A DNA stretch of 64,000 nt. Origin: Clostridia bacterium. GTDB taxonomy: Bacteria; Bacillota; Clostridia; TANB77; CAG-508. The notes under the pieces were generated by a model. That model was not told where the DNA came from, searched no databases, and worked only from the letters and a program-made list of their open reading frames with translations. Position numbers and translations under genes: made by a program. The DNA is taken from the NCBI GenBank assembly GCA_022791835.1, contig JAAVZW010000026.1, forward strand, positions 14,638-78,637, read 5' to 3'. Shown piece after piece: positions 20,051 through 49,226 of the stretch. Position 1 is the first letter of the stretch. The number at the start of each line of letters is the position of its first letter.

Positions 20051-20104
20051 AGTGAACCCAAATTATTAGACAAAATAAGTTTAATAGGGAGGGTTCATTT
20101 TATG
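20051..20104 (+). repeat. Conserved ~55-nt element (copy 1) with a 7-bp stem tgaaccc/gggttca enclosing an SD, followed by a mini-ORF MSKCSS*
   Basis: It matches 49172..49226 with 5 mismatches, including a U-G compensatory change in the stem. Confidence 0.6.
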
Positions 20105-20440
20105 TCTAAATGCTCAAGTTAATTTAAACTAAAAGTATAGAACTTATCATTTAGAAATTGTTAAATAAGTTTTTTATGTTTTTTTGAAGAAACTATTTAA
20201 TTTTTTCAAAAAGCCTTGACATATTTATAAGAACGTCGTATACTTATAACATAATTTGTTTATATAAAAGAATCAAAAAATTCAAATCAATTTAATGTTA
20301 ATTTATCATTTATTAACTTAGATTCAAAAAATCTTTAGGAAACCTCCTAAAAAATCAAAAAAACAAATAAAATCATACTATTTTAAAATTATATATTGCA
20401 AAAACCTATATGTTAATATATAATTGGAAAGGAAATAAAA

Positions 20441-21028
20441 ATGAAGAAAACATTTAAGAAATTTACAAAAACAGTTAGAGACAAAAGAGAGGAGGTACAA
20501 TCAATGCGTATGAAAATATTAAAAAATCTATCACAAAAAGTAGAGAGATTAGAAGAAAAGACAGATAAAATACAGCAAATATTGGTAGATATGCAAACAC
20601 AAGCAAAAATGGATAGAGAATTTACATTCGCAAAATTTGGACAAATAGATGAACGACTTGACAATATGGAAACTCAAGCAAAAGAAGACAGAGAGCGTAT
20701 ATTTGCAAAATTTGAACAAATAGATGAACGATTTGACAAACTAGAAACTCAAATAAAAGAAGATAGAGAGTATACAGCTACAGAATTCGAGCAAATAGAT
20801 AAGAGATTTGATAATTTAGAAAGTCAAATAAAAGAAGACAGAGAGCGTACAGCTGCAAAATTCGAGCAAATAGATAAGAGATTTGACAACCTAGAAAGTC
20901 AAATAAAAGAAGACAGAGAGCATACATCTGCGAAGTTTGAAAAAATAGAAGACCTATTAATAGAGATAATTACTAAATTGGATGGAGAAGAAATAACTCG
21001 AGGAGTACGACTAAAAAAGTTACTCTAA
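20441..21028 (+). CDS. Coiled-coil protein with five tandem ~21-aa repeats (...TQAKEDRERIFAKFEQIDERFDKLE...)
   Basis: The protein is 195 aa with 63-nt near-identical nucleotide repeats. Confidence 0.5.
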   Translation: MKKTFKKFTKTVRDKREEVQSMRMKILKNLSQKVERLEEKTDKIQQILVDMQTQAKMDREFTFAKFGQIDERLDNMETQAKEDRERIFAKFEQIDERFDKLETQIKEDREYTATEFEQIDKRFDNLESQIKEDRERTAAKFEQIDKRFDNLESQIKEDREHTSAKFEKIEDLLIEIITKLDGEEITRGVRLKKLL

Positions 21029-21099
21029 AAATTAACTTGAAAACAAACAAAATCTATGATAAAATAATGCACAAAGAAGCAAAGAAAAGAGAAACTAAA

Positions 21100-22475
21100 A
21101 TGGAAATAATTCAATTCAAAGAAGAAAAAATATTCATAGATAAAGTAAAAAAAATAAATAAAAATACAAACCCAACATACTATATCATGACTATGGGTTG
21201 CCTTTTGAATGAAAATGACAGTGAAAAATTAAGTGGAATGATAGAAGAAATGGGTTATATAAAATGTGAAGACCCAAAAAAAGCAAATTTAATAGTATTT
21301 AATACATGCTGTATTAGAGAAAATGCAGAAGAAAAGCTTTTTGGTAAACTTGGCGAATTAAAAAAATATAAAGCAGAAACTGGAGCAATTATTGCTATCG
21401 GTGGATGCATGATGCAAGAAGAACATATTACAGCAAAACTAAAAAAGAGCTATCCATATTATGACATAATTTTTGGTACACACACAATTAATAAATTTCC
21501 AGAAGACTTATATAAAATTTTATCAAAAAAACAAAAAATAAAAGATATCCTAGACATAGAAGGAGACATTTATGAAGGACTTCCAATTAAAAGAACAGAT
21601 AAAACAAAAGCATTAGTTACAATCATGTATGGTTGCAATAATTTTTGCACTTATTGCATAGTCCCATATGTAAGAGGAAGAGAAAGAAGTAGAAATCCAA
21701 AAGATATCTTAAAAGAGATAAATGACCTAGCAAAAGACGGTTGCAAAGAGATAACTTTGCTTGGTCAAAATGTTAATTCATATAATGGAGGAGAAGGTTA
21801 TACATTTGCAAAATTACTTCAGGAAGTAGAAAAAATTGAAGGCATAGAACGTATAAGATTTATTTCTCCACATCCAAAAGATTTTACAGACGATGTAATA
21901 GAAACAATAGCAAATAGTAAAAAAATCTGCAAAATATTACATTTGCCATTACAATCAGGCAGTACAAATATATTAAAAAGAATGAATAGAAAACACACAA
22001 AAGAAAGTTTCCTAGAATTAGTAGAAAAAATCCAAACAAAAATCCCTGATGTAGTACTATCAACTGATATAATAGTAGGTTTCCCAGGAGAAAAAGAAGA
22101 AGACTTCAAAGATACATTAGATGTAGTTGAAAAAGTAAAATTTGAGCAAGTTTTCATGTTTATTTACTCAAGAAGAGTGCGGAACACCAGCAGATAAAAT
22201 GGAAGACCAAATACCAGAAGAAATAAAACATGAAAGATTTGATAGACTAAAAAAATTAGTAGAAAGCCAAGTCGCAGAAAATAATGCAAAATATATAGGA
22301 ACAAAGCAAAAAATAATAGTCGAGGGTAAAAGCAAAAATAATGAAGAGATGTTAACACGGAAGAACAGAAACCAATAAAGTAGTAATCTTTAAAGGAGAC
22401 AAAAGCCTAATCGACCATAGTATAGAAGTAGAAATAATAAAAGATAGGTTATGGTACTTAGAAGGAAAAATATAA
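21100..22475 (+). CDS. miaB: tRNA-2-methylthio-N6-dimethylallyladenosine synthase MiaB (start uncertain between 21037 and 21100). Needs skipping extra Cs at 22180 and 22357
   Basis: It has an MTTase N-terminus (YIMTMGCLLNENDSE) and a radical-SAM CxxxCxxC motif. The repairs give ...IYSRRVGTPADKMEDQ... and ...MLTGRTETNKVVIFKGDKSLIDHSIEVEIIKDRLWYLEGKI*. Confidence 0.8.
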
Positions 22476-22516
22476 GAAATAAAAGGAAAACCAAATAAAT
22501 TCAAGGAGGAGCAAAA

Positions 22517-48326: not shown

Positions 48327-48357
48327 AGAATACAAGGAATTATGCAGGAGGAAACGA

Positions 48358-49014
48358 ATGGAAGAAGCTACAAAGTTTTTTCAAATTAGTCAAAACTTTA
48401 ATGATATGACAGATGAACAGATTGCTGAATTTGCTAGAGATAATAGTAAAGAAGCATTAGACTTTTTATTAGACAAGTACAAAGAACTTGTCTATATGAA
48501 ATCAAGTAAATATTTTATTATTGGTGCAGAAAAGGACGACATTTTTCAAGAAGGAATGATAGGTCTTTATAAAGCCATACAAGACTTTAGAGGAGACAAG
48601 CAAAATTCTTTTAAATCATTTGCAAATATGTGTATAGAAAGACAACTAATTACAGCAATCAAAACTTCAAATAGGCAAAAACATATGCCACTTAACTCAT
48701 ATCTGTCATTAAACACGTCTTCATATGAGGACGACGACGAAAATGAAAAAGTTTTACTAGATGTACTAAACAACAAAATGGCAGAAGACCCATTAGATAC
48801 ACTCACAAAAAAGGAATACTATTCTAGTGTAGAAAATGCAATAGATAAATCTTTAAGCGGTTTTGAAAAACAAGTATTAAGAAAATTTATAAAAGGTGAT
48901 AGTTACATAAAAATTGCAGAAGAATTAGAAGCACCAGTAAAATCAGTAGATAATGCAATTCAAAGAATAAGAAAAAAAGCCTTAAAAAGTATAGTAAATA
49001 ATGAAGAAATCTAG
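48358..49014 (+). CDS. sigH: RNA polymerase sporulation sigma factor SigH (Spo0H)
   Basis: It has sigma-70 regions 2 and 4 (IAEELE... HTH) and a SigH-type N-terminus. Confidence 0.85.
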   Translation: MEEATKFFQISQNFNDMTDEQIAEFARDNSKEALDFLLDKYKELVYMKSSKYFIIGAEKDDIFQEGMIGLYKAIQDFRGDKQNSFKSFANMCIERQLITAIKTSNRQKHMPLNSYLSLNTSSYEDDDENEKVLLDVLNNKMAEDPLDTLTKKEYYSSVENAIDKSLSGFEKQVLRKFIKGDSYIKIAEELEAPVKSVDNAIQRIRKKALKSIVNNEEI

Positions 49015-49042
49015 TCTAGCCATAATGCTAGACTACATAAAT

Positions 49043-49118
49043 GCTTCTATAGCTCAGTAGGTAGAGCACTTCCATGGTAAGGAAGGGGTCGGCAGTTCGA
49101 TTCTGCCTGGAAGCTCCA
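49043..49118 (+). tRNA. tRNA-Thr (anticodon GGU)
   Basis: It is a 76-nt cloverleaf: acceptor gcttcta/tggaagc, D arm gctc/gagc, anticodon stem cttcc/ggaag with loop atGGTaa, and T arm ggcag-ttcgatt-ctgcc, ending in an encoded CCA. Confidence 0.85.
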
Positions 49119-49171
49119 TTAAGTAAAATTGTTGCACCAGACGAAAGTATTGAAAAATCAACTGTAAATGA

Positions 49172-49226
49172 AGTGAATCCAAATTGTTAGACAAAAAAGT
49201 TTAATGAGGAGGGTTCATTTTTAATG
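49172..49226 (+). repeat. Conserved ~55-nt element (copy 2), followed by a mini-ORF MSKYSKELKLGFNVNSLG*
   Basis: It matches 20051..20104 and lies 54 nt downstream of tRNA-Thr. Confidence 0.6.

Follow-up and report, generated by a model that had tools for sequence, protein, structure and literature searches.

Comparative identification of two IS3-family left-end relics, and of a conserved hairpin predicted to cover the transposase Shine-Dalgarno sequence, in a Clostridia bacterium

Results

Two copies of a repeated element in the window

The window analyzed here is a stretch of 64,000 nucleotides (nt) from a Clostridia bacterium (contig JAAVZW010000026.1 of GenBank assembly GCA_022791835.1, positions 14,638 to 78,637 of the forward strand). 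It carries two copies of a short element, both on the plus strand, which sequence comparison identifies as left-end relics of an IS3-family insertion sequence (IS). Genes for an FBPase and an LPXTG protein lie upstream of copy 1. Copy 2 follows a tRNA-Thr (GGT) gene at 49043-49118 (+), detected with ARAGORN and scored at 65.2 bits by the Rfam tRNA model, and a sigma-factor gene stands directly before this tRNA. In copy 1 the arms TGAACCC (20053-20059) and GGGTTCA (20091-20097) are followed by a 6-codon open reading frame (ORF), MSKCSS*, at 20102-20122 (ATG at 20102-20104); in copy 2 the arms TGAATCC (49174-49180) and GGGTTCA (49211-49217) are followed by an 18-codon ORF, MSKYSKELKLGFNVNSLG*, at 49224-49280 (ATG at 49224-49226). 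Both mini-ORFs are on the plus strand. A preliminary description of this DNA had placed both copies, the tRNA and the two mini-ORFs at these positions, with copy 2, as delimited there, beginning 54 nt past the tRNA end at 49118, and reading of the sequence together with ARAGORN confirmed this.

The duplicated element is real. A 35-nt version of its pattern was expected 0.00 times in shuffles of the window, so the repeat is not a chance match, and full-length relatives gave E values of 1e-25 to 1e-29 at both copies in blastn searches. Its extent had been understated in the preliminary description, where it appeared as a ~55-nt unit differing by mismatches. Pairwise alignment of the two copies showed that similarity begins 5 nt before the start given there, at the tip of the IS (TAAAG at 20048, TGAAG at 49169), and continues into the mini-ORFs, to ~20160 and ~49254, with two 1-nt indels in addition to substitutions.

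The parent element

Further copies were sought by scanning one genome per bacterial species with a 23-nt core, TGAAYCCAAATTRTTAGACAAAA. The core was found at at least 119 loci, nearly all of them in metagenome-assembled genomes of uncultured gut Clostridia. For many of the listed matches the nearest contig end is no more than 50-100 nt away, and this placement indicates a multicopy repeat that breaks assemblies. At most listed loci the hairpin described below is followed by an ATG and by codons for MSKYSxEFKLEVVKY..., and the sequence downstream proved to be that of IS3 orfA and orfB, or unrelated DNA where the IS is truncated.

Full copies (L012, L016, L019, L040, L063, L072, L077, L086, L106, L108) measure 1436-1443 bp from TGAACCC to GGGTTCA, or ~1450 bp with the tips included. 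They encode an OrfA of ~175 aa and, in the -1 frame, an OrfB of ~305 aa; an A7 slippery run, the -1 frameshift site, lies in the overlap of the two genes within conserved YLKKL codons. OrfA matches the Pfam families HTH_28 and HTH_Tnp_1 and has heptad repeats at its C-terminus. OrfB matches rve and HTH_21, and with the NCBIfam model NF033516 ('IS3 family transposase', cut-off 160) it reaches 347 bits. At the termini, the left inverted repeat (IRL) reads TGAAGTGAACCCAAATTRTTAGAC, also given as TGAAGTGAACCC..., and the right inverted repeat (IRR) reads ...GGGTTCAGTACA; the right end ...GTCCAAYTTTTTGGGTTCAGTACA mirrors IRL, and the reverse complement of IRR is TGTACTGAACCCAAAAARTTGGAC. The terminal inverted repeats are thus imperfect and end in TG...CA, as expected of the IS3 family. 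Direct repeats of 3 bp surround 8 of 11 full copies (e.g. gtt, gtc, gta, tat, aaa, gac, aac, ccg), and are imperfect or absent around the remaining three.

The nearest named element is ISBth167, which spans the whole 1451-bp query with 75% of it covered at 67% nucleotide identity; ISBce15, ISEnfa3 and ISKpn8 are more distant. Judged by these comparisons, the parent is an unnamed ~1450-bp IS3-family insertion sequence of gut Clostridia with IS150-like ends. It resembles IS150-like IS3 elements in its length of ~1.45 kb, its TG...CA termini and 3-bp target duplications, and in having an orfA (helix-turn-helix, HTH, plus zipper) that is linked to an orfB (rve/DDE) through a -1 slip on an A-run. 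The repeats are also alike: the parent IRR reads TGTACTGAACCCAAAAAGTTGGAC and the left end of ISKpn8, which we take to be that of IS150 as well, reads TGTACTGCACCCATTTTGTTGGAC.

The window copies as truncated left ends

Twelve full-length IS copies were compared with the window by blastn, and OrfA and OrfB by tblastn. Relic 1 (20048..20160, +) corresponds to IS positions ~1-113; in the alignments 20050-20137/20160 matched IS positions 3-90/113 at 80-90% identity. Relic 2 (49169..49254, +) corresponds to IS positions 1-86, including an intact TGAAG tip, at 87-92% identity and with E down to 6e-29. No further IS DNA (IRR, body of orfA, or orfB) was found in the window by blastn, where the other matches were AT-rich noise, and no transposase remnant was found there by tblastn with OrfA and OrfB (best E = 1.2). 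Neither copy, then, has both ends together with a transposase gene. Since only IS positions 1-86 and 3-113 are present in the window, both copies are solo left-end relics; in sequence terms they are dead, truncated left ends in which IRL is followed by the 5' untranslated region, containing the Shine-Dalgarno (SD) sequence, and by 10-20 codons from the start of orfA. Unlike the named IS150-like elements, the window holds the first 86-113 nt only and no functional IS.

The mini-ORFs are, by alignment, truncated or decayed starts of orfA. In relic 1 the tip TGAAG has become TAAAG, with loss of the terminal TG, and the start of orfA has acquired a stop codon and an indel; in alignment, MSKCSS* stands opposite ATGTCTAAATACTCAAATGAATTTAAG... 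in intact copies (L079, for example), and intact orfA genes begin MSKYSxEFKLEVV.... Relic 2 is cut off after orfA codon 10, and the remainder of its mini-ORF is read-through into flanking DNA. Three other public assemblies of the same species carry relic 1 in identical form. Solo left ends are also frequent elsewhere: where the listed loci extend for 250 nt or more downstream, ~45 retain only the first 50-130 nt and then run into unrelated DNA where the IS is truncated, against ~20 with a full or contig-truncated IS, an excess that is biased in that the scan pattern was itself the left end.

The preliminary description had offered, as one of two readings, that the pair might be remnants of a duplicated gene 5' end marking integration boundaries. 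The first half of this was essentially right, since they are 5' ends of a transposase gene together with an IS terminus. The second half held in part. The two relics do not bracket an integrated island, and this possibility was rejected because core genes occupy the interval, among them those for a MiaB-like radical SAM enzyme and MutS. Relic 2 does lie at a strain-variable junction downstream of tRNA-Thr. The close strain GCA_965114065.1 (L208) shares sequence with the window only from 49261 on, ~6 bases past the end of relic 2, and this proximity places the relic at a rearrangement junction. Identity to L208 is 92% over 49261-49649 and 99.5% from 50632 onward; over 49650-50631, as upstream of 49261, the two are unrelated, and upstream of 49261 L208 has an IS30-like HTH_38 fragment instead.

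A hairpin joining the IS tip to the SD sequence

The preliminary description had reported a 7-bp stem and suggested an RNA structure involving the embedded GGAGG. The stem exists, but it is only the core of a two-part hairpin with ~20 bp in all. As predicted by RNA folding, the hairpin of relic 1 (20046..20104, +) has an outer stem of 20046-20059 paired with 20091-20104 and an inner stem of 20063-20071 paired with 20079-20087, with AAA (20060-20062) opposite GGA (20088-20090) in an internal loop, a terminal loop at 20072-20078 and the SD sequence GGAGG at 20088-20092. That of relic 2 (49170..49221, +) has an outer stem of 49170-49180 with 49211-49221 and an inner stem of 49184-49192 with 49199-49207, again with AAA opposite GGA, and GGAGG at 49208-49212. 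Its outer stem includes a G·U pair, which the C-to-T change in copy 2 (TGAATCC) yields, as had been noted before. Overall, the outer stem measures 11-14 bp and is separated by a 3x3 internal loop from an inner stem of 9 bp, which is capped by a terminal loop of 6-7 nt; GGAGG lies partly in the internal loop and partly in the 3' arm of the outer stem, and 4-8 nt separate the end of the stem from the ATG. In other words, the outermost ~25 nt of the IS, which form its terminal repeat, are complementary to ~25 nt containing the SD sequence just before the start codon, and the 5' arm (IS nt ~3-26) is the extreme tip of the element.

Relic 1 folds with a minimum free energy of -24.6 kcal/mol and relic 2 with one of -18.9; a full copy reaches -24.3 and ISBth167 -31.3. 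Compared with shuffles, the folds have z scores in the range -6.0 to -7.2 (relic 1, -7.23, with 0 of 200 shuffles as stable; relic 2, -6.02). A structure model of the IS left end matched the window at 20047-20108 and 49168-49228.

The pairing is conserved by compensatory change. In examples drawn from named elements and from a set of 80 relatives, which do not depend on any structure-guided alignment, both arms differ in concert: TGAACCC / GGGTTCA in this IS, TGCACC / GGTGCA in ISBth167, ACCGCACC / GGTGCGGT in ISBce15, GCACCCC / GGGGTGC in ISEnfa3, and CCCCGTAAATGTTAG / CTAACATTTACGGGG, AACCCCTTTTGTTAG / CTAACGAAAGGGGTT and AACCCCAAAAGTTGG / CCAACTTTTGGGGTT in metagenomic relatives. Thus ISBth167, ISBce15 and ISEnfa3 have the tip-to-SD hairpin in common with the parent IS, in contrast to ISKpn8, which does not show the same pairing. 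Within the IS family itself the inner stem alternates between TTATTA/TAATAA and TTGTTA/TAACAA. When 71 left ends were aligned with MAFFT and analyzed with RNAalifold, the inner stem alone was recovered; the outer stem is missed because its 3' arm is offset by 1 nt between sub-families.

A covariance model was therefore not taken from that alignment but built from 13 ISBth167-like sequences; its matches were aligned, antisense and right-end (IRR) ones were removed, and the 21 pairs were counted by script on 88 distinct sense sequences. Canonical pairs fill 94.4% of the cells, and 39-52% once the partners are shifted by 1-3 columns, although the alignment was fitted to the structure model, so that the counts lean towards structure, and many of the 88 sequences are related copies whose cells are not independent events. 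Double-sided (compensatory) changes occur in 12 of the 21 pairs. These folds and counts show a conserved, covarying hairpin at the left end of the IS, and they bear out the suggestion that GGAGG is part of an RNA structure.

Discussion

A predicted shield against outside transcription

Taken as a whole, the two elements are very probably left-end relics of an IS3-family element, in which the stem-loop would have been the IS's own brake on transposase translation. Because the 5' arm is the extreme tip, a transcript that carries it must start outside the IS. A transcript entering from neighbouring host DNA would carry both arms and fold; the folded RNA would hide the SD sequence and may terminate at the U-run that follows, so that host transcription would be unable to switch on transposase synthesis. 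A transcript starting inside the terminal repeat would lack the 5' arm, leave the SD sequence free and be translatable. A promoter at the junction of an excised circle is known from other IS3-family elements, and by analogy such a promoter would produce a transcript of this kind. The hairpins in the window would then be fossils of this device, and the 6- and 18-codon ORFs leftovers of orfA. Occlusion of the SD sequence in read-in transcripts is the most likely function, by analogy with the elements discussed below, and the hairpin perhaps terminates such transcripts too. Unlike the IS identity, the truncation and the hairpin itself, the translational and termination roles and the native transcript start are what we infer here.

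Several points weigh against this interpretation, besides the structure-fitted alignment and the shared descent behind the pair counts. No convincing sigma-70 promoter was seen by eye inside the left end or in a modelled IRR-NNN-IRL junction. A simple terminator scan did not call either hairpin, and the U-run pairs with the upstream GAAG/AAAG tip in the minimum free energy fold; for these two reasons the termination role is uncertain. Finally, two intact-looking copies, L059 and L087, have a perfect stem (AATTTGGGTTCA) that destroys GGAGG. This is unexpected if the 3' arm has to double as the SD sequence; these copies may be inactive variants.

Transposase genes of IS10 and IS50 are reportedly protected from outside transcription by a comparable 'fold-back' of the RNA (Davis, Simons & Kleckner 1985; Krebs & Reznikoff 1986; Mahillon & Chandler 1998). 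IS10, IS50 and IS200 have, as this IS does, an inverted repeat at the transposase-proximal end with the 3' arm over the ribosome-binding site; the likeness extends to the 5' arm at the very tip, so that only read-in transcripts should carry both arms, and to a U-run after the stem. They belong to different families with unrelated sequences, and the role proposed here is predicted from sequence and fold. In IS200 a left-end terminator acts against impinging transcription and a separate stem-loop sequesters the SD sequence (PMC4513863; PMC3196728). Where IS200 has two separate hairpins, the present IS has one long bipartite hairpin that might do both jobs. A literature search found IS200 and ISPpu9 as precedents and, among the papers searched, no description of this hairpin in IS150-group elements.

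Alternative explanations

It is possible, though rather unlikely, that the relic hairpins have been co-opted as intrinsic terminators of the host, relic 1 for the transcript of the LPXTG-protein gene and relic 2 for that of the sigma-factor gene and tRNA-Thr. This concerns present function and is compatible with relic identity. Both relics lie ~50 nt downstream of the preceding gene and are co-oriented with it, both have strong hairpins followed by 4-5 U, and the terminator scan found no other terminator-like site in 19700-20700. Co-option would explain why the hairpin survives where the rest of the IS is lost, and the excess of solo left ends would fit, but for the bias of the scan pattern noted above. 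Inverted host sequence borders several full copies, as though the IS had entered terminator loops. Against this, the U-run is engaged with the IS tip in the predicted fold. Comparison of orthologous loci was of little help: all-vs-all comparison of flanks among the 119 listed loci gave matches only between nearly identical genomes (L033/L112) or at tRNAs, and L033/L112, the sole clearly orthologous pair of solo relics, is for that reason uninformative on selection. Homologues of the LPXTG protein, sought for loci orthologous to relic 1, were few and not syntenic.

A wider version of this idea is unlikely in our estimation. In it, one clade of IS150-like IS3 elements has a widely conserved cis-regulatory RNA motif, the tip-to-SD hairpin, that is undescribed and missing from Rfam; as a strong hairpin with a U-run behind it, the motif may allow solo relics and ~57-bp derivatives (see below) to persist, or even spread, in the genomes of gut Clostridia as terminators behind genes and tRNAs. 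If true, the LPXTG-protein gene and tRNA-Thr would have functional 3' ends in the window copies, which would then not be inert scars.

It seems decidedly unlikely that the palindrome acts as DNA, as an operator or second binding site for a dimeric HTH/leucine-zipper OrfA or OrfAB with half-sites that track the specificity of the protein. In favour of it, the 5' arm is the terminal inverted repeat needed for transposase binding, OrfA has both the HTH and the heptad-repeat C-terminus, and co-variation of half-sites would resemble compensatory change. In an RNA helix G·U is tolerated and A·C is not; the symmetry of duplex DNA treats both alike, so that a duplex palindrome would penalise both equally. 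On the sense strand G·U outnumbers A·C by 189 cells to 7, and by 82 to 6 without the four outermost pairs. Moreover, the 3' arm in every case stops a few nt short of the start codon and includes the SD sequence, and IRR has the same protein-binding repeat without a second arm. The preponderance of G·U over A·C and the missing second arm at IRR together favour an RNA structure on the transposase-sense transcript.

That the window copies are miniature inverted-repeat transposable elements (MITEs), non-autonomous and moved in trans by the IS transposase, is very improbable. Very short IS derivatives with both termini and flanking direct repeats do exist in other genomes (L085, L025), but an IRR-like terminus (GGGTTCAGTACA) and all other right-end homology are missing from the window copies, and no flanking direct repeat is evident; the terminal TG of relic 1 is mutated, and the two relics end at different IS positions (86 vs ~113).

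Least probable of all, to the point of being scarcely credible, is the other reading of the preliminary description, a free-standing cis-regulatory RNA or leader-peptide family controlling downstream host genes: a stable hairpin over an SD sequence followed by a short ORF has the general look of a leader, but the at least 119 other loci are followed by the IS3-family transposase genes or random DNA and never by a recurring host gene, the mini-ORFs align to orfA and differ in length solely through truncation and decay, no Rfam family matched (only tRNA passes the gathering threshold in the whole window, and around the copies the best other match is a chance hairpin at 22 bits against a cut-off of 53), and a separate promoter-like sequence, TTGACA-17-TATACT at 20216-20244, lies downstream of relic 1 ahead of the next gene (20441).

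Significance

The finding of IS3-family left-end relics is real but ordinary biology, and current understanding is unchallenged by it. For annotation, the repeats, the mini-ORFs and the GGAGG are to be read as IS left-end relics, and not as genes or riboswitch-like leaders; they flag two former IS sites, one of them at the strain-variable junction next to tRNA-Thr. The comparison supplies clean covariation support for the tip-to-SD hairpin of ISBth167, ISBce15, ISEnfa3 and many unnamed relatives, and would be a small, useful addition to what is known of the ways in which IS3-family elements keep outside transcription from driving transposase expression. An RNA-family model seeded from it could keep such relics from being reported as novel RNAs.

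Insertion sites and small derivatives in other genomes

IS1397 and ISKpn1, two other IS3-family elements, insert into palindromic REP (repetitive extragenic palindromic) units. ISPpu9 also inserts into REPs (PMC8450116). Likewise, some full copies and small derivatives of the present IS (L063, L086, L077 and L085) have inverted host flanks, as if they lay in the loop of a hairpin. The resemblance to REP-inserting elements is a lead, not a result: inverted flanks occur in only 3-4 of 11 full copies, and no defined family of target repeats was identified.

Derivatives of the IS of ~57 bp were seen in L085 and L025 (and also in L029, L049, L057, L070, L088, L095 and L098). In each, a loop of 6-7 nt separates the left repeat from an inverted copy that ends in an IRR-like tip (TGAAGTGAACCC...TTTGGGTTCAGTACA). 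The derivative in L085 has the direct repeat TATTTTTG on its flanks and lies inside a host hairpin, AGAGAGTG/CACTCTCT; that in L025 has TAA flanks. Such units resemble MITEs of unusually small size, or 'corrected' quasi-palindromes.

The end of the IS lies 45-65 nt downstream of tRNA genes at L083, L084, L009, L017, L022, L107 and L053, as it does in the window (spacer at 49119-49168). The tRNAs are Gly-TCC, Gln-TTG, Leu-CAA (in four species) and, in the window, Thr-GGT. The spacer between tRNA and IS is conserved and hairpin-rich and is of two types; the window and L009 share ...GCACCAGACGAAA.... The IS may prefer the 3' flanks of tRNAs as its target, or the sites may descend from an old insertion held in common. 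At L065 and L089, in two species, the upstream flanking gene is just 68% identical, and the IS end is at the same relative position in both; one is an apparently full copy at a contig end and the other a relic of ~124 nt, which suggests site-specific re-insertion or an ancient retained insertion.

Other features of the window

Directly downstream of relic 1, four 75-bp tandem repeats were found at 20568-20958 within a coiled-coil ORF (20441-21028). An intergenic motif, TTCTRGRAAAGTACGCRCGTAGCGTGTAATTGAYGTA, occurs at 40887-40940 and, inverted, at 50582-50635, and also at 11549, 15026, 20148, 40974 and 43822. In some copies it is followed by TTAGAAAWTRTT...TTTTTTA, and it lies upstream of promoter-like sites. 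One copy marks the boundary of strain variation at 50632 and another overlaps the tail of relic 1; the motif has no Rfam match.

Frameshifts interrupt two DNA-repair genes, mutS (22517-25130) and ruvB (51552-52511). At 41069-43466 a P-type ATPase gene, whose paralogue lies at ~5.7-7.9 kb, is broken into three ORFs. Recoding of the genetic code was rejected as the cause of short and split ORFs, as mutS and ruvB are broken by frameshifts and no one stop codon recurs. The split in ruvB, which leaves a 105-aa N-terminal ORF, recurs in five independent assemblies and is therefore probably real, not a sequencing error.

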